Origin: Candidatus Pelagibacter sp. HTCC7211
GTDB lineage: Bacteria; Pseudomonadota; Alphaproteobacteria; Pelagibacterales; Pelagibacteraceae
NCBI RefSeq assembly: GCF_000155895.1
Contig: NZ_DS995298.1
Location: 810,001-842,000 of the forward strand
DNA: 32,000 nt
Direction: 5' to 3'
The stretch's first letter is position 1. Each line of letters opens with the position of its first letter. The translations under genes were made by a program, and so were the position numbers. This document shows, piece by piece, positions 1,368 through 18,914 of this stretch. The notes beneath the pieces are model-generated. The model had not been told where the DNA came from. It worked only from the letters and a program-made list of their open reading frames with translations, and ran no database searches.

Positions 1368-1850
1368 ATGTCAGGCTATTCTAGAAAATTAGTTTCATTA
1401 GAAATTACACTCAAAGAAATTATAAAAGATTTAAAAGCAGATGCTTTAAAAGAAATTACTGGTAAATCTGAATCTCATTTTAGAAAATGTAGTGATGAGA
1501 ATGATACTCAAGATATCCATCATATAGATTCAATTAAAATTGATATTGAGTGTTTAAAAAGAGGTTTGGGTAATCCAATGTTAAGTGCTCACGAAGATAT
1601 GTTGGAATCAACCAGTCCAGAGTATAAAAATTTAGATAATGTATCAAATACCTTAATTAACATTGGAGCAAAAATAGGTAAATTGATGGAAACTACTCAA
1701 AAAGCTACTAGCCCTAAAGGAGAAGGGGGCAGTAAAATTTCTGAAAGTGAAAAAAAACATATTAGTAAAGCTCTTAATGATGTTGAAGATAAAATATTAG
1801 AATTAAAACTTATTATTGAAAGATCCAATAAACTTAGTGAAATTAAATAG
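1368..1850 (+). CDS. hypothetical protein, candidate CII/CP76-like DNA-binding regulator (160 aa)
   Basis: ORF track. HTH-like segment ALKEITGKSESHFRKCSDEN. Its own promoter is overlapped by the operator, and its 3' end contains half of operator copy 2. The functional call is an inference. Confidence 0.6.
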   Translation: MSGYSRKLVSLEITLKEIIKDLKADALKEITGKSESHFRKCSDENDTQDIHHIDSIKIDIECLKRGLGNPMLSAHEDMLESTSPEYKNLDNVSNTLINIGAKIGKLMETTQKATSPKGEGGSKISESEKKHISKALNDVEDKILELKLIIERSNKLSEIK

Positions 1851-1863
1851 ATAACATTTCACT
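1836..1863. promoter_or_regulatory. operator copy 2: AGTGAAAT-N12-ATTTCACT
   Basis: Exact half-sites. The first half lies in the last codons of CDS 1368..1850. It is followed after 10 nt by TTGACG (1874..1879). Confidence 0.7.
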
Positions 1864-1900
1864 TCAATCTCAGTTGACGTAATAGAAAAGTGTGAGATTG
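1864..1900 (+). promoter_or_regulatory. -35 box TTGACG (1874..1879) bracketed by the inverted repeat CAATCTCA/TGAGATTG; promoter region of the 1941..6943 operon
   Basis: CAATCTCA 1864..1871 and TGAGATTG 1893..1900 flank the -35 box. The -10 is weak or unclear (GATTGT/ATTGTA). Unlike the other copies, the downstream gene has a leader with an AAGGA Shine-Dalgarno sequence. Confidence 0.4.
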
Positions 1901-1940: not shown

Positions 1941-2672
1941 TTGAATAATTGTGAAATAAAGATGAAGACTGATTACAGAGATATTGTTAAGCTAAATTCG
2001 ATGAAAGATAAAACTGAAATGTTTAACTATTCTCCAAGTGAATTTGCCTTCGGTTTTGAGAGTTGTAAAAGATGTTATTATGATAAAAAAGTAAATAGTA
2101 TTGAACTAAAAGTTCCTTTTCCAGGAATATTCTCAAAATTTGATAGTTTACAAAAAAATTTTTATCACGGCAAATCAAGCAAAACTCTAACTGATAATCT
2201 TGAAGAGGGTGAAATTGTAGGTGATTTTAATAAAATGTTAAGATCAGAAGTTTTATATGATCTTAAAGATAGACCATTTACCATGAGTGGTAAAATAGAT
2301 GCTTATATTAAACATAAAGACTCATTCACTATAGTAGATTTTAAAACTACAAAAATTAATGAGAGTAAAATTGATGCTTATGCAACCCAGCTTCAAAGCT
2401 ATGCATTAATGATGGAAAAACCTAAAGAAGGTAGCTTAAAACTTACTCCAATAAAAAGATTAGGTATCTTTTGTTTTGAGCCAAGTAATATTTCAAGAGC
2501 AGAGAGTAATAATTGCAACATTCATATGGATACACAGTGGTATGATATACCAAGAGATGACAAAGATTTAATTGGTTATATTACCAAAATTCAAGATGTT
2601 TTATATTCTAAAGAAACTCCAGAGTCTGGATCAAGTTGTGGAATATGTAATTTTAGAAAGGTAATGAAATAA
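1941..2672 (+). CDS. PD-(D/E)XK nuclease, Cas4/RecB-like, with 4 Cys (243 aa)
   Basis: Motifs: GKIDAY, IVDFKTTK (D-x-K) and QLQSYALMM (QxxxY). CKRC near the N-terminus and CGIC near the C-terminus fit an Fe-S/Zn cluster pattern. TTG start at 1941 follows AAGGA; alternative ATG at 1962. Confidence 0.7.
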   Translation: MNNCEIKMKTDYRDIVKLNSMKDKTEMFNYSPSEFAFGFESCKRCYYDKKVNSIELKVPFPGIFSKFDSLQKNFYHGKSSKTLTDNLEEGEIVGDFNKMLRSEVLYDLKDRPFTMSGKIDAYIKHKDSFTIVDFKTTKINESKIDAYATQLQSYALMMEKPKEGSLKLTPIKRLGIFCFEPSNISRAESNNCNIHMDTQWYDIPRDDKDLIGYITKIQDVLYSKETPESGSSCGICNFRKVMK

Positions 2673-2968
2673 TGCAAAAACTTTCTAATTCTGAAGTTAA
2701 AGTTACAGAAGTCATTAGTTTTATTTTAGAACAATATAGAAATGAAAAAGTTAATCATGATCTTGAAGTTGCATCTGAATTAATTCTTATTGCTAGAATT
2801 CTTCATCAAAGATTTAAAATTTCAAATGGAACACAGGTTAAAGAGGATAAATCTGTTGTTTTAGCTAAAAATGAAATTCTTAAAGAAATTAAGGATGACG
2901 AATATTATGAGCTTATTAAAAACTTTATAAAAGATTATCGACAATTCAGAGATAAAAACGTAAATTAA
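2672..2968 (+). CDS. hypothetical helical protein (98 aa)
   Basis: ORF track. The ATG overlaps the stop of the upstream nuclease gene (TAATG), indicating translational coupling. Confidence 0.55.
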   Translation: MQKLSNSEVKVTEVISFILEQYRNEKVNHDLEVASELILIARILHQRFKISNGTQVKEDKSVVLAKNEILKEIKDDEYYELIKNFIKDYRQFRDKNVN

Positions 2969-2973
2969 TATTC

Positions 2974-5535
2974 ATGTGGAAGTTCATTAAGTACAGCTTC
3001 AATAAAGCTTTTGAGAAAAATTTATTAAATTTAATAATTTTTTTTATTGCACTTAGTTTTATTGGAGTATTTGTAATATCAACAGTAATTTTTATATTTC
3101 AAAAAATTGGACTTTTATCAGAAAATAACTTTTTTACAGAAACACTATGGCAAGGATTTAGGTTATTTTTTGATCAAAATGCTATTTTTGTTCTTGACAG
3201 TAATAAAAATAATTTTTTTGATTTCTTATTAAAGTTTAACCTTACCATATTTGGTGTTTTAATATTTTCTTCAATTATTGGAATTGTCACAAATTTTATA
3301 TCAGGAAGAATAGAATCGTTAAGATCTGGTAAAACCAAAATTGAAGAGGAAAATCATATTATTTTTTTTAATTTTTCTAGAAGATTAATTCCACTATTAA
3401 CTGAGTTATGTAATGCTTATGTAAAAGAAAAGCAGTCTTTTGTAATTGTAAGCACTGAAGAGCCTTTAACAGTAATGGAAAAAATAAATAGTGTTGTCAA
3501 AATTCCAAAAAATATAACGATAGTTGCTAGGAAAGGTTATGCTTGGCAAAAAAGTCTGCAAGATAGAATTAATTTAGAAAAAGCAAAACAAATTATCATT
3601 TTAAAACCAGATGCAGGTGTGACTTATAAAACTGAACTAGATTGTGATGTTGAGGTTGGAAAAAGTTTAGCATCACTACTTGCAAGTAAACATTGGGATA
3701 TAAATCCATGTAAGGTCTTAGCTGAGTTTCATGATGAAAAAAGAGGCTTTTTATACCTTTATTATTCAAAAGATATCATTGTTAAAAAAATGGAACAGAA
3801 GGGTAATACTTGGCAAGATCCAGATATCATCAGTTCATCAAATTTAAAAAACTCTTTATTAGCACAATGCACTAATACACCTGATCTATCAGAAATTTAT
3901 GACAACTTATTTGGTTATGAGGGATCAGAAGTTTACTTTGTTGATCCAAAGAATGAAAAATATTCTGAAATTCTTAAAAAAAACCAAGGCAAAACTATTA
4001 AAGATTTAAATGCTTTATGTGACAACATAATAATTATTGGATTTTTCCAAGATGATCAAAGACACAACTTAGGTTGGAATAAACTTTTTATTAATAGTCC
4101 AATAGATTTTCCTTTATCAGATAATTTTGGAATTATTTGTGTTGCTAAAGATGAAGACCAAATAATTAATGAGTTAAACAATATAGATAATCAAAGTAAA
4201 GAAGTTGCAGATATTTCACCTAATTTTAAAGAAGATAATAAGGATATAAATGTTTCAATGTTTGATTATAGTAAGGAGAATAACAATCTCTATCTTACTA
4301 GTCTAATCAACTCTATTATTGATAGTAACTATTATAATAATCTAAAAAGTCTTAAAGTTTACAGAGATAAATTTAATGGCAGTTTAACTGATAAAAAGTT
4401 TTTACCAGCTGCACCTGATTATAAAATTAATAAAGATGAGGTTAACCACCCTTTATTAGGAATTATATTTCATATTTTAAAAACTGAGGAAAAAAATAAG
4501 TTTGGTTTTCAAATATACTCAATCAATAAACAATCATCTTTAAGTGAAAAATTAAGCTCAGGAGATACTATTTTAAATATAGCATCAAAATCAGAAGCAG
4601 AGAGTCTTAAAGGAAAATCTGAAATTGAATTATCTTATAAATCTGCACCAGGAGGTGCTCATAAAAAATTTAAAGAAAAATTAATTAAATTAATTAATGA
4701 AAATGAAGAAGTTATTTTAATTGTTAAAAAATCTAGTTCTAAAGACATAGAGTTTATTGAAATTAAAAAAGATCAAATATCAAAAGATCAACAGCAAATT
4801 CATCAATCATTTGAAGAGATACAGTCGAACCGTCAACAAATGATCAAAGATCTTAATGATAATGTAACCTTTGAAGAAAAGAACTTAGAGGATGTTACAA
4901 AAGACATGAGTATGGGCACAGTAATGGAGTATGAAAAAGATAATTGTTATATCTTCTTTAATGAAACTAACCAACAGATCCAAAAGTTTAGAGAAAACCC
5001 TACAGAAGACCATGTAATGATTAATAATTTTGTTGGATTTTCAAACTTAAGACTAAGTGATGGTAAAATGGCAGATCATTCAATGATTACTGAGATTAAT
5101 GGATATAGAAGTAAAAAAATCCTAGAAGACTATAAAGCAAAGTACTTTAGTCCTTATATAGGCAATGATGTAATTGAATTGAATTCAATTGTGAGTAAAT
5201 ACTTAGCTGCAGGTACATTTGATATTAAAAATACTAAACTAATTGATCTTCTCTTTAGTAGAACACATACTGTTAAAGCTCACACATTAGTTGATAAAGA
5301 ATTAACAGCTACATTTTGTGAATTAGAAAAATACTTTCAAAATAAAAATGAAACCTTAATTGGAATAATTGACTATGAATTTGATAAGGATCAAAGACGA
5401 AAAATTAAAAATATATCAATTAACCCTAAGCAAACTGAAAACATTAAATTAGATCAAGGGGATCGATTAATAACTATTGCAAACTTTAATGATTTAGAGA
5501 TAGTTAATCAAAGTAGATATTTACACATATTATAA
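2974..5535 (+). CDS. CASTOR/POLLUX(DMI1)-like RCK-domain cation channel homolog with an inserted middle domain (853 aa)
   Basis: N-terminal TM helices. The segment TLWQGFRLFFDQNA...ESLRSGKTKIEEENHIIFFNFSRRL matches, by eye, the pore/filter-to-RCK junction of CASTOR (ALWLSWTFVADSGNHA...DSLRKGKSEVIEKNHILILGWSDKL). Colinear matches continue through both RCK-like halves to the C-terminus. Confidence 0.65.
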   Translation: MWKFIKYSFNKAFEKNLLNLIIFFIALSFIGVFVISTVIFIFQKIGLLSENNFFTETLWQGFRLFFDQNAIFVLDSNKNNFFDFLLKFNLTIFGVLIFSSIIGIVTNFISGRIESLRSGKTKIEEENHIIFFNFSRRLIPLLTELCNAYVKEKQSFVIVSTEEPLTVMEKINSVVKIPKNITIVARKGYAWQKSLQDRINLEKAKQIIILKPDAGVTYKTELDCDVEVGKSLASLLASKHWDINPCKVLAEFHDEKRGFLYLYYSKDIIVKKMEQKGNTWQDPDIISSSNLKNSLLAQCTNTPDLSEIYDNLFGYEGSEVYFVDPKNEKYSEILKKNQGKTIKDLNALCDNIIIIGFFQDDQRHNLGWNKLFINSPIDFPLSDNFGIICVAKDEDQIINELNNIDNQSKEVADISPNFKEDNKDINVSMFDYSKENNNLYLTSLINSIIDSNYYNNLKSLKVYRDKFNGSLTDKKFLPAAPDYKINKDEVNHPLLGIIFHILKTEEKNKFGFQIYSINKQSSLSEKLSSGDTILNIASKSEAESLKGKSEIELSYKSAPGGAHKKFKEKLIKLINENEEVILIVKKSSSKDIEFIEIKKDQISKDQQQIHQSFEEIQSNRQQMIKDLNDNVTFEEKNLEDVTKDMSMGTVMEYEKDNCYIFFNETNQQIQKFRENPTEDHVMINNFVGFSNLRLSDGKMADHSMITEINGYRSKKILEDYKAKYFSPYIGNDVIELNSIVSKYLAAGTFDIKNTKLIDLLFSRTHTVKAHTLVDKELTATFCELEKYFQNKNETLIGIIDYEFDKDQRRKIKNISINPKQTENIKLDQGDRLITIANFNDLEIVNQSRYLHIL

Positions 5536-5542
5536 TAAACTA

Positions 5543-5740
5543 ATGACTAAGTATGACCTTAAAAATAAGCTAAGATTACAATTAAGTGATGATATGAGGG
5601 AATTTGCGATAATAAATAATTTAACTGAACAAGATGTAATAAAAATTAGAGACAATAATTTGATACCTCAACCCCATCTAGGTTTTTTAACTGCATTATT
5701 AAAAGATAAACATTTTGAATTCTATAAAGAGGAAAAATGA
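5543..5740 (+). CDS. small hypothetical protein, possible short HTH (65 aa)
   Basis: ORF track. REFAIINNLTEQDVIKIRDNN resembles an XRE-type helix-turn-helix. The stop overlaps the next start (ATGA). Confidence 0.5.
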   Translation: MTKYDLKNKLRLQLSDDMREFAIINNLTEQDVIKIRDNNLIPQPHLGFLTALLKDKHFEFYKEEK

Positions 5741-6306
5741 CTGACGAGAATAAAATAGAAAACCTTGATGAAAGAATTAACTTAATTAAAAGTGCTTTTG
5801 AATTTTCTGAAGCAAAATGGATAGAGCCATTAGAAACAACCGAAGGAGATATTGTTGATCAAAAAATAAATACCAAAATAAGAGGAATGTATTATTTCTA
5901 TGAAAATAATTTTTATTTGGGTATTTCTTCAAAAGGAACTATTTATGATAGACACAAAACACATAAACCAAAATTTGATGTTGATTTACATCTTTTGTGG
6001 AAAAATCATTGGGACTTCTCAAAAGTTTGGCAAGAAGGTGTAAAAAAATTTTATCTAGAAAAAGATCCAGGGCCTATTCCATTTATTAAAAGAATTAATA
6101 AAGATCACAAACCTTATGCTGAAGAATTTACATTTCCAGTAATACATAAAATTAATACTGATAAAATCAAAGTTTTAATATGGAATATGGATCATTTACC
6201 TCCATGGCAAATTGAAATGATAGAAAAAATTGCAATATATAAGCTATGGCCATATTGTAATGATGAAACAAGCAGGAGGAGACAATATGAAAATAGACAT
6301 CTATAA
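5737..6306 (+). CDS. GIY-YIG domain protein (189 aa)
   Basis: GMYYFYENNFYLGISSKGTIYDRHKTH (GIY...YLG...R..H), then later EMIEKIAIYKLWPYCN (Glu/Asn of the GIY-YIG core). The GIY-YIG spacing is shorter than canonical. Confidence 0.55.
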   Translation: MTDENKIENLDERINLIKSAFEFSEAKWIEPLETTEGDIVDQKINTKIRGMYYFYENNFYLGISSKGTIYDRHKTHKPKFDVDLHLLWKNHWDFSKVWQEGVKKFYLEKDPGPIPFIKRINKDHKPYAEEFTFPVIHKINTDKIKVLIWNMDHLPPWQIEMIEKIAIYKLWPYCNDETSRRRQYENRHL

Positions 6307-6943
6307 ATCAAAATTTTTTATATTTATGGATTTTACTCAAGCAGAGATTATGGAAATGTCTTTTTCTAAAAATAGTGATTCAGAAAAAAAAATTCTTAGA
6401 GAAGGAAAAAAACATTCAAAAGAAATGACTAAATTATTTGATATAATAATTGATCCTTTTAAAAAAAATGGTCTTGACCAAACAGCTGAAAATAAAAAAC
6501 ATATATCTAGTTTAAAAAAGTATAAAAAAGAATATGAAGACATGTTTAACTACACTCCAAATCAAATGAGAAAATGGACAAGGAAGCTTTTATTGTTAAA
6601 AAAAAATATAATAGAAAAATTTATTCTTGAACAGCACCCAATAAAGAAATGCACCTATAGATATATTAATCCAATGCAAATAGGATTTTATGAACATTTT
6701 AAAATAGGACTAAATCACAAGGAGCCTCAAAAAAAAACAAAGTTTAATAAAGATATTCACTATGGACATCAAATAACAGTAGAGTTTAAAAATAATAATA
6801 AAGCAAATCAATTGAAAGATAAAAAAAAAGCTATAAATTTAAAAAATAAATTTGAAAAGTTTTATAATAAAAAATTTCTTACCCCATATAAATTTAATTT
6901 ATTTAATTTTGAAGATAAGATTGTAATTTCTAACTTGAATTAA
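6287..6943 (+). CDS. Lys-rich basic hypothetical protein (218 aa)
   Basis: The track ORF 6230..6943 was trimmed to the ATG at 6287, which follows a strong AGGAGGA (6273..6279). Overlaps the upstream gene by 20 nt. Confidence 0.55.
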   Translation: MKIDIYKSKFFIFMDFTQAEIMEMSFSKNSDSEKKILREGKKHSKEMTKLFDIIIDPFKKNGLDQTAENKKHISSLKKYKKEYEDMFNYTPNQMRKWTRKLLLLKKNIIEKFILEQHPIKKCTYRYINPMQIGFYEHFKIGLNHKEPQKKTKFNKDIHYGHQITVEFKNNNKANQLKDKKKAINLKNKFEKFYNKKFLTPYKFNLFNFEDKIVISNLN

Positions 6944-7004
6944 ATAATTTAGTCTATTTAAAAGCTATTAACCTATTTAACCAGGATAATAAACGTATTC
7001 ACAA

Positions 7005-7032
7005 AGTGAAATTTATCATTAAAAATTTCACT
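7005..7032. promoter_or_regulatory. operator copy 3: AGTGAAAT-N12-ATTTCACT
   Basis: Exact half-sites, 10 nt upstream of TTGACG 7043..7048. Confidence 0.75.
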
Positions 7033-7042
7033 CCCACCTGAG

Positions 7043-7070
7043 TTGACGGATTACACTTTTGCCTTATGAT
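7043..7070 (+). promoter_or_regulatory. promoter TTGACG-N16-TATGAT, then N6-ATG (leaderless geometry) for gene 7077
   Basis: TTGACG 7043..7048, TATGAT 7065..7070, ATG 7077. Near-identical to 8581..8608. Confidence 0.65.
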
Positions 7071-7076
7071 TAGTTT

Positions 7077-7637
7077 ATGAATACATTTAAATCTAACGAA
7101 GAAAATACTATCAGTAACTTTGTTTCAATTAACGAAGTAATTAACTATGAACCACCAAAATATATTCCTAACTGGGATGGTAGCTTTAATAAGATTAAAA
7201 GTGGTAAAAGCTCATACTTTAGACCCAATAAAGAGTTTTCTATTTTTAATATAAATATTATTAACAGTAACTCATTAAGATTAGATGCAAAATCTGAAGG
7301 TATTTATATTATCTTAAGTGAAAAGTTTAATTTCTTTTATGTTGGAAAAACCTTATCTAATATAAAACAAAGATTACACTCACACATACAAAAGCTTACC
7401 TCAACAAATAACAATAGGTATACAACACCTCTTAAATGGCAAAAGTTAGCATTTATCAGATATAATGCTTTAAAAGAAGAAAGTGTAAAGTTAGATGATC
7501 TTAAGATTAAATTTTATCATTCATCTGAATATTCAATGTGCAGTATTGATGAGCTAGAAAATAATATATATCTAAAATATAAAGCTTTATTGCCCAAATA
7601 CATATCATTGAATGATCCAAAGGCGCTTGAAAGTTAA
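7077..7637 (+). CDS. GIY-YIG nuclease domain protein (186 aa)
   Basis: Canonical GIYIILSEKFNFFYVGKTLSNIKQRLHSH (GIY-N10-YVG...R..H) followed by IDELENNIYLKY (catalytic Glu/Asn region). Confidence 0.7.
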   Translation: MNTFKSNEENTISNFVSINEVINYEPPKYIPNWDGSFNKIKSGKSSYFRPNKEFSIFNINIINSNSLRLDAKSEGIYIILSEKFNFFYVGKTLSNIKQRLHSHIQKLTSTNNNRYTTPLKWQKLAFIRYNALKEESVKLDDLKIKFYHSSEYSMCSIDELENNIYLKYKALLPKYISLNDPKALES

Positions 7638-7730
7638 AATTAATTTTAATAAGTTATTAGAAGGTAAAATATTTGCAGATAAAGATTAAGAAAAATTAAA
7701 AATACTTGATGAATGGATAGAAAAAAATAA

Positions 7731-7991
7731 ATGACAGATATATACAAAAAAATAACTGAGCTTAACTCCAAGTATGGTAATGATTCTTCTGAATTTGAAG
7801 AAGAATTAACTGAGCACCTTAAGAAGAAGTTTCCTGAACAATATAAATTATCATTGAAAGATCTTAAAAATGATGGTTCAGATGATCCTGAAATGGAAAT
7901 GACACCAGGTAGATTTGCAGATCATATTGGTGATAAAAGTGAAGAGTTATTGAAAGAATATGAAGCTATTCTAAAAAAACTTAATGGATAA
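7731..7991 (+). CDS. small acidic hypothetical protein (86 aa), paralog of 8248..8523
   Basis: ORF track. Shares EEEL..(H/K)LK..F.E.YK...(D/E)L.N...PG....I.D with the product of 8248..8523. Confidence 0.55.
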   Translation: MTDIYKKITELNSKYGNDSSEFEEELTEHLKKKFPEQYKLSLKDLKNDGSDDPEMEMTPGRFADHIGDKSEELLKEYEAILKKLNG

Positions 7992-8001
7992 AATAGGATA
8001 A

Positions 8002-8244
8002 ATGGCTTTTGAATATAAAAAACTTGGTAAACTTCAAGATCATTTAGAAGCAGAAGCAACTGACTGGATAGAAAATTATATCAAGGACCTACATGGAGTT
8101 AATGATTCGGTAGAGCTTACAAAAGAACAAATAAGTGAAATTGATAAAGCAGCTGAGGATGAGAAATTAGATATCTATGTAGGTTTAGCACTGAGAAATA
8201 TAGTTCAAGCTTGGTATGACCATAACGAACCCGATACTCTTTAA
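8002..8244 (+). CDS. small acidic hypothetical protein (80 aa)
   Basis: ORF track. Its stop is 3 nt from the stop of the convergent gene 8248..8523. Confidence 0.5.
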   Translation: MAFEYKKLGKLQDHLEAEATDWIENYIKDLHGVNDSVELTKEQISEIDKAAEDEKLDIYVGLALRNIVQAWYDHNEPDTL

Positions 8245-8247
8245 AAC

Positions 8248-8523
8248 TTAGTTTTCTAAATTATCAAACCAATCATTAACAATAGTTAAAGCATTAGCTT
8301 GATCAGCTTCAGGCAAATCTTCTATATAAGCTGATATAGTTCCAGGTGATGGTATTTCTTCTTCTGGATTATTAAGTTCATTAGCTGCAATTTTATAACT
8401 TTCACCAAAACTTTCTTTTAACTTTTTTGCTAATTCTTCCTCAAGAGATGTTGCATTGCCTGGACTGTTATTATTGTAAATTTTGTCCATTACTTCATTA
8501 ACTCTGTTACGTAAATTTCCCAT
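8248..8523 (-). CDS. small acidic hypothetical protein (91 aa), paralog of 7731..7991
   Basis: ORF track. Its upstream region runs into operator copy 4, with possible TTAATT-N16-TATATT overlapping the operator. Confidence 0.55.
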   Translation of the reverse strand: MGNLRNRVNEVMDKIYNNNSPGNATSLEEELAKKLKESFGESYKIAANELNNPEEEIPSPGTISAYIEDLPEADQANALTIVNDWFDNLEN

Positions 8524-8542
8524 ATTTAAATCTAATATATTT

Positions 8543-8570
8543 AGTGAAATTGTTCAATTAACATTTCACT
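8543..8570. promoter_or_regulatory. operator copy 4: AGTGAAAT-N12-ATTTCACT in a divergent promoter region
   Basis: Exact half-sites, 10 nt upstream of TTGACG 8581..8586. On the other strand it overlaps the putative promoter of 8248..8523. Confidence 0.75.
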
Positions 8571-8580
8571 CCTAGCTTGG

Positions 8581-8608
8581 TTGACGGATTAGGTTTCTGT
8601 TTTATGAT
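8581..8608 (+). promoter_or_regulatory. promoter TTGACG-N16-TATGAT, then N6-ATG (leaderless geometry) for gene 8615
   Basis: TTGACGGATTA...TTATGATTAGGTTATG parallels 7043..7079 almost base for base. Confidence 0.65.
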
Positions 8609-8614
8609 TAGGTT

Positions 8615-8806
8615 ATGAAAACATATAAACCTTTTAAGTTAAAAATAAAAAAAAAATCTACCTATAAACCAATACGTTTTAAAAAGCCTAAACCTTATAA
8701 AAGGGGCAGGTTATTAAAAAATGGTATTACTCAGCATATGAGAGTTTCAATTACAGGTAGACGTTATTGGACACCGATTATCACTAAAATAGATCGTCCA
8801 GACTAA
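8615..8806 (+). CDS. very basic small hypothetical protein (63 aa)
   Basis: ORF track. Lys/Arg/Pro-rich (KLKIKKKSTYKPIRFKKPKPYKRGR). First gene after operator copy 4. Confidence 0.45.
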   Translation: MKTYKPFKLKIKKKSTYKPIRFKKPKPYKRGRLLKNGITQHMRVSITGRRYWTPIITKIDRPD

Positions 8807-8824
8807 TAATTTTTTCATAAAAAA

Positions 8825-9112
8825 ATGAATAATAGTTTTAGATTCGAGACTAATTTTAATAATCCAATACTCTATGAAGTTATTTTCTTAAATGACCAAG
8901 TTACTACAATCGAATTTATAATCCGAGTTTTAAAACATATTTTCAATAAGGAACATAAACATGCTCTTAAACTTACCAGAAAAATTCATGAAGAAGGATA
9001 TGGAGTTGTTGGGTCATATATTTATGAAATTGCAGGACAGAAAGAATTAGAAACAAGTTTGATGGCAAGAGATGAAAATTTTCCTTTAAGAGTTGTTATA
9101 AAAATAAAATAA
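8825..9112 (+). CDS. clpS: ClpS-like ATP-dependent Clp protease adaptor (95 aa)
   Basis: YEVIFLNDQVTTIEFIIRVLKHIF...ALKLTRKIHEEGYGVVG...PLRVVI is colinear with the ClpS core (VILLNDDYTPMEFV..VL...F...A...M..VH..G.A.CG). Confidence 0.75.
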   Translation: MNNSFRFETNFNNPILYEVIFLNDQVTTIEFIIRVLKHIFNKEHKHALKLTRKIHEEGYGVVGSYIYEIAGQKELETSLMARDENFPLRVVIKIK

Positions 9113-9178
9113 CTTCTTTTTAAATTAAATAAAATTTAAAATAGCTGATAAATAAATTAAATATGTTATATTTGGTTT

Positions 9179-9328
9179 ATGAAAACATATAGAATTAGAG
9201 TAAGAATTGCTGGTGGAAGAATAGTTGATATTGAAATTCAAGCACCTGATGTACATGCTGCGTTAAACATGGCTAAATCACAATATGGTGAAGGCAATGT
9301 CCTAAGTGCTCCAATATTGGTAAGATAA
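9179..9328 (+). CDS. small ORF family member (49 aa), below the track size cutoff
   Basis: Manual translation: MKTYRIRVRIAGGRIVDIEIQAPDVHAALNMAKSQYGEGNVLSAPILVR. Paralog at 10951..11106; truncated copy at 13173..13262. Confidence 0.5.
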   Translation: MKTYRIRVRIAGGRIVDIEIQAPDVHAALNMAKSQYGEGNVLSAPILVR

Positions 9329-9332
9329 CAAA

Positions 9333-10184
9333 ATGAAGTTTAAAATTGTACCTACTAGACAATATGACATCAGCAAGTTCACAAAAGGTGAGCAAGAAAT
9401 TTGGGTACATGTAAATTGGGGTTATTGTGAAGCTGATGAGTTAAATGTATACAGCAGTGATTTGTTTGAAAATTGTACATCGATCGAACAAGTACAAAAA
9501 GTTGTAGATGATACAGTCAGTAAATGTAAGACAGTTACAAAAAATACCGATTTAGATAATTACGAAGAATATTGGAAAGACAGTCTGGAAACCGATGTGT
9601 ATGACAGCGCTGAATTAGGAGAAGCGCTCAAACTTGATTATGAGGTATTGCTGAATACAACATCAAGTGGTGGTACAAATTGTGAAATAATTTTTCATAA
9701 AAATGTATCAGATGAGGAATTCAACAAAGAACTAGACAATGATGGAGAAATTATCACACTCGAAGATGCCGCAAATATTTGGAGAGACGAAGTATTATCA
9801 AACGATGGTTGGTTGGAAAGCACAGATACTTATTATCAAGCACCACTTAAAGTCGTCAATGTGTTGAGTGAAAAAGAACAAGCTGAGTTAGAAGCAAGTG
9901 CAGAATATCAATTTAACAAGAACGAAAGTGCTAAACGATGGGCAAGTAAGATTAACATTTTATTCATGGACAAAAAACCAGAAACAACTGAGGTCGAAAA
10001 ACTACAAAAACAACTTAGTAATGTTAAACAAGAAGATTTAGATCTTATATTGCGTTACTATGAACAAAAACATGGTGATACGGAATTTAAAGGTGGTGGG
10101 ATTAAAAAAATAGATAATAATAAAAAAATTGAATTTTTAAAAAATTTAAAACAACAGAAAAGCAAAGAAATAAGAGTTAATTAA
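9333..10184 (+). CDS. acidic hypothetical protein (283 aa)
   Basis: ORF track. No recognisable motifs. Confidence 0.55.
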   Translation: MKFKIVPTRQYDISKFTKGEQEIWVHVNWGYCEADELNVYSSDLFENCTSIEQVQKVVDDTVSKCKTVTKNTDLDNYEEYWKDSLETDVYDSAELGEALKLDYEVLLNTTSSGGTNCEIIFHKNVSDEEFNKELDNDGEIITLEDAANIWRDEVLSNDGWLESTDTYYQAPLKVVNVLSEKEQAELEASAEYQFNKNESAKRWASKINILFMDKKPETTEVEKLQKQLSNVKQEDLDLILRYYEQKHGDTEFKGGGIKKIDNNKKIEFLKNLKQQKSKEIRVN

Positions 10185-10472
10185 ATGAGCAATAAAGAAG
10201 ATGAATTGTTTAAATTTGTCAAAGAATGGGAAAATAAAGATTATAATGAGTTTAACAGAAACTTTGAAGCCTTTGTGGAAAAATTAGAATTATCTTATGA
10301 GGAAACAAAAGAAATTTCATTATCCTTAGACGCAGAATCTTATAAAGATGGTAGTCCAAATTCAGGCAGTGCTCACTTGCAATATGCCGCTGACTTTTTT
10401 GTAATGATACTTGAAGATTACGATAATAATAATGAGTCAGATGATTCAAGAAAATATTTGATTAATGAATGA
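10185..10472 (+). CDS. small acidic hypothetical protein (95 aa)
   Basis: ORF track. Starts 1 nt after the previous stop. Possible distant relative of the 7731/8248 family (SYEETK...DGSPNSGSAHLQYAADF). Confidence 0.5.
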   Translation: MSNKEDELFKFVKEWENKDYNEFNRNFEAFVEKLELSYEETKEISLSLDAESYKDGSPNSGSAHLQYAADFFVMILEDYDNNNESDDSRKYLINE

Positions 10473-10876
10473 CAGACGATAAGAAAACTCTTTTTAATAA
10501 ATTAGAGAGCATTAATGAAGAAGCGCATAATTATGCTTACAATTTGTGGGAAGAAGCAGGCAGACTAGAAGATGAGCATGGATATACTGATGAAGTTGAA
10601 GAGAAAAAAATATTAGCTAGTGATGAACAAGCATCATCATTTAAAGAAATTTTTAATAAAGAGCTAACTATTGAACAAAAAAAATTATTTTGGAAATTAG
10701 TAAAAAATGCAGATCAAGATCCTGATAGAGGTTTAATTGAACAATATTTAGATTGGTTTTGCAACAATTCTGAAAGAATGAAAATATGCTTAATTAAAGA
10801 AATGAGCAAATTAGCCACCAACCAATATTTTGCAGACCTTTTTCAAATTAAAAACTTTAATTATTTGGAAGATTAA
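10469..10876 (+). CDS. hypothetical protein (135 aa)
   Basis: ORF track. ATGA overlap with the upstream gene. Confidence 0.5.
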   Translation: MTDDKKTLFNKLESINEEAHNYAYNLWEEAGRLEDEHGYTDEVEEKKILASDEQASSFKEIFNKELTIEQKKLFWKLVKNADQDPDRGLIEQYLDWFCNNSERMKICLIKEMSKLATNQYFADLFQIKNFNYLED

Positions 10877-10893
10877 AATGTATTGTAAGACAT

Positions 10894-10930
10894 TATAGGA
10901 TAACTTGCACCCTAGTTGCACTCAGAGATA
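10894..10930 (+). repeat. copy 0 of the TATAGGATAAC + (TTGCAC-N5-TTGCAC) + CAGAGATA junction motif
   Basis: TATAGGATAAC 10894..10904, TTGCAC 10905..10910 and 10916..10921. Homologous to 13584..13622 and 15403..15441. Confidence 0.6.
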
Positions 10931-10950
10931 CAATAATATAAAATATTTTT

Positions 10951-11106
10951 ATGGAAATGAAAGAATATGAATTTTATGTAACGTTACAAGATGGCAAAGG
11001 TTTTAAGGTTATTCAAAAAGCAAGAACAATGTCTGAAGCTAAACAAGCAGTAGAAGCACAGTATTCTAATGCTAAATCTGTTATGTTTACAAGAGTTCCT
11101 TATTAA
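10951..11106 (+). CDS. small ORF family member (51 aa; 49 aa if started at ATG 10957)
   Basis: Manual translation: MEMKEYEFYVTLQDGKGFKVIQKARTMSEAKQAVEAQYSNAKSVMFTRVPY. Same length and MK.Y...V....G....A..QY pattern as 9179..9328. Confidence 0.45.
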   Translation: MEMKEYEFYVTLQDGKGFKVIQKARTMSEAKQAVEAQYSNAKSVMFTRVPY

Positions 11107-11114
11107 GAAAGCTA

Positions 11115-11131
11115 TTGCACTATACTTACAC
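11115..11131 (+). repeat. tandem hexamers TTGCAC-N5-TTACAC (11-bp period)
   Basis: Same hexamer family and period as 10905..10921 and 13595..13611. Confidence 0.45.
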
Positions 11132-11180
11132 ATAAAAGAAAAAAATACTTAGTTTAAATTCTCGTAATATTTTTACATTA

Positions 11181-13172: not shown

Positions 13173-13262
13173 ATGGCTAAATCACAATATGGTGAAGGTA
13201 ATGTTTTAGGTGCTCCAATGTTAGTGAGATCCTCATACAATAATAAAGAAGAAAATATTTGA
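13173..13262 (+). pseudogene. truncated 3' copy of the 9179..9328 small ORF
   Basis: 13173..13229 matches 9269..9325 at about 87% (ATGGCTAAATCACAATATGGTGAAGG...). Homology starts at an internal Met codon of the intact gene. Confidence 0.55.
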
Positions 13263-13583: not shown

Positions 13584-13734
13584 TATAGGATAACTTGCAC
13601 AAGACTTGTACATGAGGAGATAAAATAAAAAAAATTTACTTATTAGCCTTGTTCAATTATAAATATTAGCATAAACACTCATGAAATTCATTAATGCCCT
13701 CGTGGTGAAATTGGTAGACACAAAGGACTTAAAA
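13584..13734 (+). repeat. direct repeat DR-L: junction motif + tRNA-Leu promoter region + 5' 39 nt of tRNA-Leu
   Basis: 13639..13734 is identical by eye to 15458..15553; 13584..13638 is diverged. The tRNA part (13696..13734) stops at the anticodon loop (CTTAAAA). Confidence 0.85.
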
Positions 13735-13970: not shown

Positions 13971-14336
13971 GTGAGTTTAAAAAAAAAGTTACTATGTAGT
14001 GTAGCAGTTGCCACTGTAGCTATACCTTTATCATTAAACAATATTACTTCTTCTGCTAAAGCTGAATCTTGCTACTCCCTTGGTAACTCAATTTATTGCA
14101 GTGATGGTTTTAGCGCCTATTCTCTTGGAAACTCGGTTTATGGTAATGATGGTTATAGTTCATACTCTTTAGGTAACTCAACTTATGGCAATGATGGTTT
14201 TAGTTCCTATTCTCTTGGAAACTCGGTTTATGGTAATGATGGTTTTAGTGCCTATTCTCTTGGAAACTCGATTTATGGTAATGATGGTTTCAGTGCCTAT
14301 TCTCTTGGAAACTCTATATATAGTTTTGGCAATTAA
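13971..14336 (+). CDS. secreted repeat protein, 5.8 copies of the 15-aa unit YSLGNS(I/V/T)YGNDG(F/Y)S(A/S) (121 aa)
   Basis: GTG start. Sec-type signal (LLCSVAVATVAIPLSLNNITSSAKA|E). The whole mature part is G/N/S/Y-rich repeats. Confidence 0.6.
   Translation: MSLKKKLLCSVAVATVAIPLSLNNITSSAKAESCYSLGNSIYCSDGFSAYSLGNSVYGNDGYSSYSLGNSTYGNDGFSSYSLGNSVYGNDGFSAYSLGNSIYGNDGFSAYSLGNSIYSFGN
14073..14333 (+). repeat. in-frame 45-bp tandem DNA repeat (about 5.8 units)
   Basis: Units such as TATTCTCTTGGAAACTCGGTTTATGGTAATGATGGTTTTAGTGCC repeat head-to-tail with a few substitutions. Confidence 0.9.
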
Positions 14337-15059
14337 TTGAAAACAATTAAAGTTGGGTGGTTTATAGACGACACACATAGAGCTAAATTTCTTTTTAATG
14401 AACCTTTTCCAGTAAAAAAAACCAGAAGAATTCCTTTATCAAAAAGAGCGGTACAGGCATGTCCTGCAGTCAATCACTTCGAAAGACGATATTTTCAAGT
14501 AAACTTTCCTTACGATCTGAGACTAAGATATGAGTTTGAAAATGAAAAACATAATTTGTATGTAATTCCAGAAGAAACAAGAATCGACGATGATTTAATT
14601 GCACAAAATATTGTTTTAATGCCTCCAAAATTTTGGAGGGATGAAAATTTTCCAACTATTCAAATAATGTGTCCTTATGTTTTTATATCTGATGATGATG
14701 TTTTTATGTCACAACTACCACCATTCTTAGACTATAAGCATAATTTATGGCCTGGTTTAGTGACAGCAGGAAGGTTTCCTATAAATATTTGGCCAAGAAT
14801 TCTTTCTTGGGGATTTGAGTGGGTCGATAAAAAAAAAGATTTAATTTTTAAAAGAGGTGACCCCTGGTTTTATGTTTTTTTTGAATCAAAAGACCCAACT
14901 GACATAATTAATTTAATAATGGCTGATAATACTGATGAATTAAAAGAATATAGGAAAGGTATAGCAGATACTGTTAAATACACTTCAAATTCTTTTGGAT
15001 TATTTGAAGAAGCAAAAAAAAGAAGGCCAAAAAAACTTTTAAAAGAAAGGAAAAAGTGA
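14337..15059 (+). CDS. hypothetical protein (240 aa), coupled to the repeat protein
   Basis: ORF track. The TTG start immediately follows the TAA of 13971..14336, so the start is uncertain. Basic C-terminal tail. Confidence 0.5.
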   Translation: MKTIKVGWFIDDTHRAKFLFNEPFPVKKTRRIPLSKRAVQACPAVNHFERRYFQVNFPYDLRLRYEFENEKHNLYVIPEETRIDDDLIAQNIVLMPPKFWRDENFPTIQIMCPYVFISDDDVFMSQLPPFLDYKHNLWPGLVTAGRFPINIWPRILSWGFEWVDKKKDLIFKRGDPWFYVFFESKDPTDIINLIMADNTDELKEYRKGIADTVKYTSNSFGLFEEAKKRRPKKLLKERKK

Positions 15060-15402: not shown

Positions 15403-15553
15403 TATAGGATAACCAGCACAAGACCAGCACACAGAGATATAAAATAAAAAAAATTTACTTATAGGTCTTGTTCAATTATAAATATTAGCATAAACACTCA
15501 TGAAATTCATTAATGCCCTCGTGGTGAAATTGGTAGACACAAAGGACTTAAAA
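15403..15553 (+). repeat. direct repeat DR-R (partner of 13584..13734), continuous with intact tRNA-Leu
   Basis: See DR-L. Preceded by the perfect palindrome TCCTATA-aag-TATAGGA (15393..15409). Confidence 0.85.
15454..15482 (+). promoter_or_regulatory. candidate tRNA-Leu/nadK promoter TTTACT-N17-TATAAA
   Basis: Good hexamers and spacing about 35 nt upstream of the tRNA. The same element is duplicated at 13635..13663. Confidence 0.4.
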
Positions 15554-15600
15554 TCCTTGCCGCTTGCGGAGTGCCAGTTCGAGTCTGGCCGAGGGCACCA
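15515..15600 (+). tRNA. tRNA-Leu (anticodon UAA)
   Basis: Manual cloverleaf: acceptor GCCCTCG/CGAGGGC, anticodon loop CT-TAA-AA, long variable arm, T-loop TTCGAGT, encoded CCA. Confidence 0.9.
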
Positions 15601-17826: not shown

Positions 17827-18417
17827 ATGAAGCGAAATGGTTTCACATTAATAGAACTCTTAGTCGTAGTAGCAATCATCGGTATACTTGCTGCAGTGGG
17901 TGTTGTTGCTTATGATGGTTATACTAGTATTGCAAAAGATAATGCTGTTAAGGTAAATTGTAAACAAGTTGCTTCAGAGATAGGTTCGAAGTTTGGTTTT
18001 TGTGCAATGAATCCTGGATCATCTATACAACTAAAATCAATTGGTGGAAGACAAACCATAGAAAATGTTCAATGTGATAAAAATAAAACCAGTACAGGAC
18101 AGATGTTAATCAAAATAGTTAATCATTTAAATAATGAAGGTTATAAAAATCCTTATGGACATAATAGTGGTACAGAAGGTGTTCATAATGGACCCGGTGC
18201 CTATCAAGCAAGTTCTGGACTTTGGTGGCAAGATTTAATGATTAAAGGAAATAGCTATGATAAGTTATCACTAGGTAGATGTGTAGTGCAATATCATACC
18301 AATGGAGATATTGGTGTTACAGGTTTTTTTGATGCGGGAACTTTTAAAGCAAATGGTCGTGACCTTTCAGAAGCATTGCAATGGACACAATTAATCATGA
18401 CAGCTGATACTAGATGA
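17827..18417 (+). CDS. type IV pilin-like / pseudopilin protein with prepilin N-terminal motif (196 aa)
   Basis: MKRNG|FTLIELLVVVAIIGILAAVGVVAY is the canonical prepilin cleavage/methylation domain. Confidence 0.85.
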   Translation: MKRNGFTLIELLVVVAIIGILAAVGVVAYDGYTSIAKDNAVKVNCKQVASEIGSKFGFCAMNPGSSIQLKSIGGRQTIENVQCDKNKTSTGQMLIKIVNHLNNEGYKNPYGHNSGTEGVHNGPGAYQASSGLWWQDLMIKGNSYDKLSLGRCVVQYHTNGDIGVTGFFDAGTFKANGRDLSEALQWTQLIMTADTR

Positions 18418-18914
18418 AACAAAAAGGTTTCACCCTAATAGAACTCTTAGTCGTAGTTGCAATCATCGGTATTCTCGCTGCAGTAGGTGTGGTTGCTTAT
18501 AGTGGATATACGAGTGGTGCAAAGAAATCTGCCATTAAATCAAATTTTAAAACTGTAGAAAAATATACATCTGCTGAATTAATGAAGTGTCAAATAGGTC
18601 AAACAGATATTTTTATAAACTCTGGATCAAATAAAGTTAGTTGTAGTGGTGTAGATAATCCAGGTAGAACTTATACAGCAATGGTTTTTGATCCTAGTCT
18701 TAGATTCTTAAATCCAATTAATAATGGAATTGGAAATAGAGCTGACCAACATGTATTAAGAAACGATGTTTATAAAGGATCAAACATACCAGACAACATG
18801 ACTGGTTATATTTTTTTAAATTTCGGATCAACTTGGCCAGCAACTATGAGATCTTGTATTGAGGCACCTTGTTCAAATCCAAACAACATCTTAACTTCAA
18901 GTATTAATTATTAG
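18414..18914 (+). CDS. type IV pilin-like / pseudopilin protein, paralog with divergent C-terminus (166 aa)
   Basis: MKQKG|FTLIELLVVVAIIGILAAVGVVAY. ATGA overlap with the upstream pilin gene. Confidence 0.85.
   Translation: MKQKGFTLIELLVVVAIIGILAAVGVVAYSGYTSGAKKSAIKSNFKTVEKYTSAELMKCQIGQTDIFINSGSNKVSCSGVDNPGRTYTAMVFDPSLRFLNPINNGIGNRADQHVLRNDVYKGSNIPDNMTGYIFLNFGSTWPATMRSCIEAPCSNPNNILTSSINY

Follow-up and report, generated by a model that had tools for sequence, protein, structure and literature searches.

A SAR11 member of the CASTOR/POLLUX/DMI1 channel superfamily with a predicted PDZ-fold domain in its gating ring

An open reading frame (ORF) of 853 amino acids, P0001, runs without interruption through positions 2974-5535 (+) of the window, which denotes here the whole 32,000-nucleotide stretch of DNA analyzed, from the complete genome (1,456,888 bp) of a SAR11 bacterium (Pelagibacter). 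Its product belongs, over its full length, to the CASTOR/POLLUX/DMI1 channel superfamily, as the first-pass annotation of the window had claimed, and is probably one subunit of a tetrameric, ligand-gated cation channel whose gating is modulated by a PDZ domain. The N-terminus, MWKFIKY, is a start kept across all close homologues, which, like the related loci, carry the labels Candidatus Pelagibacter or Pelagibacteraceae. The motifs quoted in the first-pass annotation all occur in the translation, with TLWQGFRLFFDQNA at residues 57-72, covering pore helix and filter, ESLRSGKTKIEEENHIIFFNFSRRL at residues 113-138, GIIFHILKTEEKNKFGFQIYSINK...GDTILNI from residue 495, and DRLITIA at residues 829-835.

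Searched as a single sequence, P0001 gives borderline scores, namely 22.1 bits against Pfam Castor_Poll_mid (PF06241; cut-off, 26.7), E=0.043 against Slo-like_RCK and E=0.0045 against LjCASTOR (6o6j). Its relatives P0122 and P0125 pass the Castor_Poll_mid cut-off with 36.4 and 28.3 bits, respectively, and a precomputed PF06241 match is present on most homologue clusters at 56-68% identity. Exhaustive phmmer searching with P0001 returned 1351 matches, headed by a handful of full-length relatives (31-46% identity) and followed by many proteins of ~610-660 aa (E=1e-15 to 1e-23); the five ~630-aa bacterial relatives that were scanned score 84-107 bits with Castor_Poll_mid and carry two RCK-type domains. 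When the PDB was searched with a profile built from the ~850-aa clade only (A2), CASTOR/DMI1 were the sole matches (E=4e-13), the CASTOR match consisting of four collinear pieces (residues 118-213, 285-322, 370-395 and 696-799). In hhalign, A2 aligns over residues 8-845 with a profile of 30 classical bacterial Castor_Poll_mid members (A4) at a probability of 100% and E=3.6e-59, although columns ~398-660 of this alignment are of low confidence and clash with both MAFFT and the structure model on the betaA strand of RCK2, where the structure model was preferred. The likeness of P0001 to CASTOR is not due to chance. P0001 has no match in PHROGs or NCBIfam. It is not a one-genome oddity, because its family is large and present in marine and other metagenomes.

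The AlphaFold2 (AF2) model of P0001, built on a 122-sequence alignment, has a mean predicted local distance difference test score (pLDDT) of 89.8 and a predicted template modeling score of 0.84. Its topology comprises an N-terminal amphipathic helix, two transmembrane (TM) helices with a pore helix and a short loop between them, and two Rossmann-type modules; the three membrane-associated helices assigned by DSSP (17-44, 54-66 and 81-118) have pLDDT values of 80-91. The amphipathic helix (2-15) is the most highly conserved segment of the N-terminal part, with a mean entropy of 0.33. Foldseek with this model ranks the gating rings of LjCASTOR and MtDMI1 first (6o7a, 6o7c, 6o6j and 7vm8; E=1e-23 to 1e-24, target TM-score 0.77-0.80), followed by the full-length Slo1 and Slo2.2 channels. 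Thus, the main structural claims of the first-pass annotation held up in the checks at the level of the family profile and of the fold: family profile, hhalign, AF2 and Foldseek together give both RCK/Castor domains and a re-entrant pore loop between two TM helices.

The pore region can be aligned residue by residue with that of the relatives. Classical bacterial members have the spacing W-x2-F-x4-D-x-G-x4-D-x-G, and P0001 has W59-x2-F62-x4-D67-Q-N69-x5-D75-S-N77, in which D67 appears at the same distance from the pore-helix Trp as the Asp of the bacterial D-x-G. The filter of CASTOR is AD265S(A)GNHA, and its D265 is essential to conduction, since the D265N mutation abolishes current (Kim et al., PMC6697748). 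Judged from this spacing and the published motif, D67 is the equivalent of CASTOR D265. The full plant motif AD(S/A)GNHA is not matched by P0001, whose filter reads F-D-Q-N-A-I; comparison with the published motif (PMC6697748) indicates that the critical Asp is kept and that Gly, Asn and His are not. The filter is therefore altered, as had been noticed at first reading, with the Asp retained. Among 122 close relatives, position 67 is occupied by D in 99, V in 20 and N in three; the 20 relatives with V67 have VTEAF in place of DQNAI, shifting the acid to E69, and 120 of the 122 consequently bear a carboxylate at 67 or 69. Nearly invariant in the same set are W59, F62, L64, F65, L74, N79 and D83, and G94 of the inner helix, conserved at 90% or more over the 122-member superfamily sample, is a candidate gating hinge. 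This conservation pattern would fit a working pore with a carboxylate ring.

In the gating ring, FGYEGSEVYF is the most conserved motif of RCK1 and aligns with the GFENCEFY loop of CASTOR. In the CASTOR crystal structure, both the Ca(II) site and the Na/K sites are provided by this loop, and E493 is the sole side-chain ligand of Ca(II). E319 of P0001, which aligns with E493, is invariant in the clade, and CASTOR D553/D554 correspond to D393/E394. The strand ILGWS of the relatives reads FFNFS in P0001, and the alignment here bears out the earlier observation that the GW-motif strand is replaced.

The 630-aa relatives lack anything corresponding to about 170 residues of P0001 (~485-655), and ~137 residues of this insert are also missing from a 720-aa form found in Pelagibacteraceae. 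Structure prediction identifies the insert as a PDZ-fold domain (~493-598) plus a 32-residue helix, placed in the AF2 model inside the N-lobe of RCK2 between strands 2 and 3. Modeled in isolation, the insert reaches a pLDDT of 79, and the best 50 VIA-align matches of this model are PDZ domains without exception (Z 8.3-5.5 over 70-93 aligned residues), among them those of CtpA, DegP, DegQ, DegS and HtrA and eukaryotic PDZs. The Foldseek matches of the insert are almost entirely PDZ domains with weak E-values (best, 9e-3), and its language-model neighbors are PDZ clusters with low scores (0.76-0.78). L495-G496, invariant or nearly so, directly precede the strand 497-503, apparently at the position of the GLGF-like loop, and together with GDTILNI seem to fit the usual PDZ signatures. 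The guess that the insert is PDZ-like has thus held at the level of the fold.

The P0001 clade has a 16-aa extension past the last strand of RCK2, which ends in LHIL in 111 of 120 close relatives, and residues 851-852 of P0001 lie in a beta-strand in the AF2 model. Hydrophobic-ended tails of 16-20 aa are found in four of the five PDZ-bearing lineages, that is, the close clade, P0122, P0123/P0125 and P0128/P0129, with LYFL, ARLI/ASLL, CYSI/YYSI, YSFL and FSLL/FSLI as ends outside the close clade, and in none of ~96 PDZ-less proteins. In a quick maximum-likelihood tree, which was midpoint-rooted only, the long-form family occupies one strongly supported branch with the classical ~610-660-aa proteins as its sister group. 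The 720-aa group, lacking both PDZ and tail, is nested in the long-form family, implying that the PDZ domain was gained once and lost once. A P0126-like lineage has a PDZ-like insert and no tail, indicating that the tail depends on the PDZ and not the reverse. From this phyletic coupling, in which the tail occurs only in PDZ-bearing forms, we infer that the PDZ domain binds the C-terminal tail.

Two further arrangements were seen in the family. On metagenome contigs, paralogous long-family channel genes (~710 aa and 932 aa) lie on the same strand less than 3 kb apart (L049:1935-4064 and 6804-9602; L050:146-2275 and 5015-7813). In a metagenome-assembled genome labeled Rhodospirillaceae, a channel homologue is divided into two ORFs of 247 and 427 aa (L019:4658-5401 and 5480-6763), with homologues of the pilin block and of the regulator close by; a frameshift, a pseudogene or faulty assembly could account for the split.

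Taken as a channel subunit, P0001 would work as follows. The pore would be formed by four modules of two TM helices and a pore helix, and the ring of D67 carboxylates would provide cation selectivity and possibly divalent permeability. A cytoplasmic gating ring of four tandem-RCK units would pull on the inner helix via the conserved LRxGK linker and probably still binds a cation at the GYEGSEVY loop, where E319 takes the place of the Ca(II) ligand E493. The PDZ on the RCK2 N-lobe would bind a hydrophobic carboxy-terminus, in most lineages the channel's own tail (...YLHIL-COOH), in cis or from the neighboring subunit, and the tail seated in the PDZ groove would act as a latch on, or a tuner of, the gating ring. 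Stand-alone channel genes, which lie among metabolic genes or beside another channel gene (see below), also count for this reading. Several observations weigh against this model. The Gly of the CASTOR filter motif is replaced by Asn in P0001, two of the 122 close relatives are acidless at both 67 and 69, and in P0128 and P0129, which are more distant, the filter reads NPG and SSG, so that conduction by P0001 cannot be taken for granted. Of the Ca(I) and Ca(III) ligands only a part is retained, with K151 in place of CASTOR S345 and D254, at a variable position, in place of D442. Pfam PDZ models gave no match with 10 insert sequences at E up to 1, which leaves the PDZ assignment resting on the fold, and the P0126-like lineage implies that tail binding is not the sole role of the PDZ domain. 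Finally, literature searches found no experimental work on bacterial members of the CASTOR superfamily.

Table 1. Positions in the window of P0001, its parts, and the elements preceding it
Feature	Position	Strand	Basis
Whole P0001: two-TM pore module, tandem RCK, PDZ insert, C-terminal tail	2974..5535	+	ORF, AF2, hhalign
N-terminal amphipathic Lys-rich helix, residues 2-15, presumably cytoplasmic	2977..3018	+	AF2 DSSP; entropy
TM1, outer helix, residues 17-44	3022..3105	+	AF2
Pore helix, residues 54-66; W59, F62, L64 and F65 nearly invariant	3133..3171	+	AF2, conservation
Filter loop, residues 67-80, with D67-Q-N69	3172..3213	+	Alignments, conservation, PMC6697748
TM2, inner helix leading into LRxGK linker, residues 81-118	3214..3327	+	AF2, alignments
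RCK1, residues ~119-410, including loop FGYEGSEVYF (312-321)	3328..4203	+	Alignments to CASTOR
RCK2 N-lobe, first beta-alpha-beta, residues ~418-464	4225..4365	+	AF2
Predicted PDZ-fold domain within RCK2 N-lobe, residues ~493-598	4450..4767	+	Fold matches, alignment
Long helix after PDZ, residues 599-630, belonging to the insert	4768..4863	+	AF2
Remainder of RCK2, residues ~655-837; aligns collinearly with residues 411-510 and onward of the CASTOR chain	4936..5484	+	Profile, hhalign
C-terminal tail, residues 838-853, ending in YLHIL-COOH	5485..5532	+	Comparison with PDZ-less relatives
Inverted repeat AGTGAAAT-N12-ATTTCACT, then GTTGACG; precedes channel-containing operon	1836..1879	+	
Cas4-like PD-(D/E)XK nuclease, 243 aa, first gene of operon	1941..2672	+	
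98-aa protein with no assigned function	2672..2968	+	

The channel gene is probably co-transcribed with two genes upstream, encoding a Cas4-like nuclease and a 98-aa protein (Table 1); the start of the 98-aa gene overlaps the nuclease stop, and its end lies 5 nt ahead of the channel start. Four copies of AGTGAAAT-N12-ATTTCACT are present, at 1325-1352, 1836-1863, 7005-7032 and 8543-8570, each adjoining a TTGACG -35-like hexamer ahead of an island operon (GTTGACG in the three plus-strand copies). They are not exact 28-bp repeats, because the arms are identical and the 12-nt spacers differ. The nuclease and the 98-aa gene stand directly upstream of the channel at 11 genome loci and in G139, 12 loci in total. 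Around channels only 28-45% identical, the Cas4-like nuclease is found within a few kb in eight of 18 metagenome loci, in varying order and orientation, and homologues of the Cas4-like (50-54% identity), GIY-YIG and regulator proteins recur within this distance. The channel also occurs without the nuclease, among metabolic genes in L008 and beside an Ion_trans channel gene in L017, where the PDZ-less 720-aa form (L017:8001-10163) lies ~280 bp from a 241-aa gene of voltage-gated type on the opposite strand (10443-11168 (-)). The nuclease occurs without the channel in G008, G124 and G108; in G008, a nuclease of 54% identity is followed by an ATP-dependent DNA ligase (L024:4094-4753 and 4785-6137) in place of the 98-aa gene and the channel. 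Since each occurs without the other, an obligate nuclease-channel pairing was rejected. A 65-aa ORF directly downstream of the channel (5543-5740) has counterparts of 80-100% identity in L003, L004 and L005 and is absent from the other loci.

The surroundings had been described as a mobile island. The channel gene is accessory and its interval hypervariable: a search of 60 related genomes, of which 36 belong to the same genus, did not find the gene, and the interval bracketed by the conserved 406-aa and NAD kinase genes measures 18 kb here, against 13 kb in G008 and 26 kb in G010, which both lack the channel. This part of the description stands, and 'mobile' is too strong a word. An integrative mobile element was rejected, as no integrase or transposase was present among the ORFs scanned from 807.5 kb to 825.6 kb of G000, and so was a phage or virus origin, as neither a tblastn search of 50,697 phage records nor an IMG/VR pattern scan gave a match; 'flexible island' is therefore the better term. 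A conserved six-gene minus-strand block to the left of the channel operon, at first taken as an element backbone, contains a prepilin-type protein and may be a minor-pilin cluster. Proteins with a prepilin N-terminal methylation motif are encoded on both flanks of the hypervariable interval, at C1:809084-809593 (-) of G000 (= L023:2084-2593) and at 17827-18417 and 18414-18914 of the window.

The window carries several further repeats. Five 45-nt units in tandem, with 62-84% identity to the first, extend over 14069-14366 inside the ORF 13971-14336, and a related 21-nt word also occurs at 7764-7784. A 151-nt direct repeat with 91% identity (13584-13734 and 15403-15553), the second copy of which enters the 5′ part of a tRNA-Leu (15515-15600), could be a scar of cassette insertion beside this tRNA. 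A 58-nt direct repeat with 88% identity (9269-9326 and 13173-13230) starts with ATG; its copies lie shortly before two distinct ORFs of the island and would both specify the same peptide N-terminus.

Two alternatives concern the pore itself. P0001 might be a non-conducting, membrane-anchored sensor or scaffold with a relic pore, whose RCK-PDZ ring regulates another protein. The filter loop is indeed one of the more variable stretches in the N-terminal module (with a mean entropy of 0.96, as against 0.60 for TM2), the filter Gly is lost, the acidic residue is missing in some relatives, and Ion_trans_2 (PF07885) matches nothing in the host genome, the pore of P0001 included. However, the classical members of the CASTOR family likewise escape Ion_trans_2, yet CASTOR conducts (PMC6697748). 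The pore-helix aromatics, the inner-helix Gly and the LRxGK linker are strongly conserved, and nearly all relatives keep a carboxylate, at position 69 in one subclade; the sensor or scaffold reading is considered very unlikely. Even less credible is a canonical MthK- or Kch-type K+ channel serving K+ homeostasis, which we regard as highly improbable. Such a channel would have the same architecture of a two-TM pore plus RCK, the superfamily profile does reach MthK and Slo1 at E ~1e-15, and P0001 is the only pore-loop channel candidate in the 1.46-Mb genome. Nevertheless, P0001 has the loop FDQNA and no TVGYG-like filter, its closest relatives by sequence and fold are CASTOR/DMI1 and not MthK, the genome already encodes TrkA-type RCK proteins and K+ uptake components, and the gene is missing from most relatives, all of which speak against this reading.

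The other alternatives concern the purpose for which the pore would open. A role as a defense effector is possible and is suggested by the gene neighbors and, by analogy, by a preprint reporting type X Thoeris with an ion-channel effector (10.64898/2025.12.03.692087). In its general form, P0001 would be the membrane-depolarizing effector of an undescribed island-borne anti-phage system, closed until infection is sensed, when a carboxy-terminus competing for the PDZ, or a signal tied to the neighboring Cas4-like or GIY-YIG nucleases, would open it, collapse the ion gradients and abort the infection. The operator-fronted operon behind the Cas4-like nuclease at the 12 loci, the recurrence of the nuclease and regulator homologues near divergent channels, and the accessory status of the gene in a hypervariable region would all suit such a system. 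On the other hand, the channel matches no PADLOC-DB 2.0 model and the nuclease only generic Cas4 or PD-(D/E)XK models, the window yielded neither a TIR nor a cyclase nor any other known sensor, the order and orientation of nuclease and channel vary, and each is found without the other; their co-occurrence may merely reflect one island type shared by related genomes. On balance this system is unlikely. A more specific version, quite unlikely in our estimate, makes P0001 a peptide-gated 'executioner' or alarm channel, in which the tail shuts the ring and competing carboxy-termini arising during phage infection or proteotoxic stress displace it and open a Ca2+/cation pore, acting with the Cas4-like and GIY-YIG nucleases of the island as an undescribed defense module of SAR11.

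A CASTOR-type, PDZ-modulated cation channel is thus the preferred reading of P0001, and its novelty lies in the PDZ-fold domain of the gating ring and the companion tail. CASTOR/POLLUX/DMI1, the symbiosis channels of plants, have many bacterial relatives, and we know of no described channel with a built-in PDZ-tail latch on an RCK ring. A gating ring that has acquired a PDZ domain, usually with a matching hydrophobic tail, points to such a latch as a regulatory principle. P0001 is small, rich in soluble domains and confidently predicted, making it tractable for structural work and electrophysiology. As the sole pore-loop candidate of its genome and an accessory island cargo beside nucleases, its function bears on how ion signaling or phage resistance varies among streamlined ocean bacteria.

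The best matches of P0001 in both sequence and fold are LjCASTOR, LjPOLLUX and MtDMI1, the Ca2+-regulated channels of the plant nuclear envelope (6o6j, 6o7a, 6o7c and 7vm8). They share with P0001 a pore helix and, after it, a filter that contains an Asp and is not of the TVGYG type, an LRxGK-type linker from the inner helix to a tandem-RCK module, and a G-x-E-x-x-E-x-Y loop. Whereas the plant channels have four predicted TM segments, a D-S/A-G-N-H-A filter and an ILGWS strand, P0001 has two TM helices with an N-terminal amphipathic helix, a D-Q-N-A filter and FFNFS; it further differs in the PDZ and long helix in the RCK2 N-lobe, in the hydrophobic tail, and in keeping the Ca(I)/Ca(III) ligands only in part. 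The classical bacterial Castor_Poll_mid proteins (~610-660 aa; P0153, P0160 and P0163) are collinear with P0001 over its full length and have the same two-TM topology and W..F....D spacing, but they possess a D-x-G....D-x-G filter and ILGW strands and have neither PDZ insert nor tail. BK/Slo1, Slo2.2 and MthK resemble P0001 in the architecture of pore and gating ring, and Slo channels also in carrying two RCKs in one polypeptide and in tolerating large insertions in RCK2; they differ in their K+ selectivity filter, the lack of a PDZ domain and a far more distant sequence, and Slo has voltage sensors. The predicted PDZ domain, for its part, resembles those of CtpA/Prc, DegP/DegQ/DegS and HtrA in fold (Z 7-8.3), in the GD-x-IL-x-I motif and apparently in a GLGF-like loop. 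Protease-type bacterial PDZs recognize hydrophobic carboxy-termini such as YxF-COOH, as in the structure of DegS with an OMP peptide (3gcn). Unlike the PDZ domains of these proteases, with which it has no sequence-level match, that of P0001 would lie in the cytoplasm, within an RCK domain instead of being joined to a protease.

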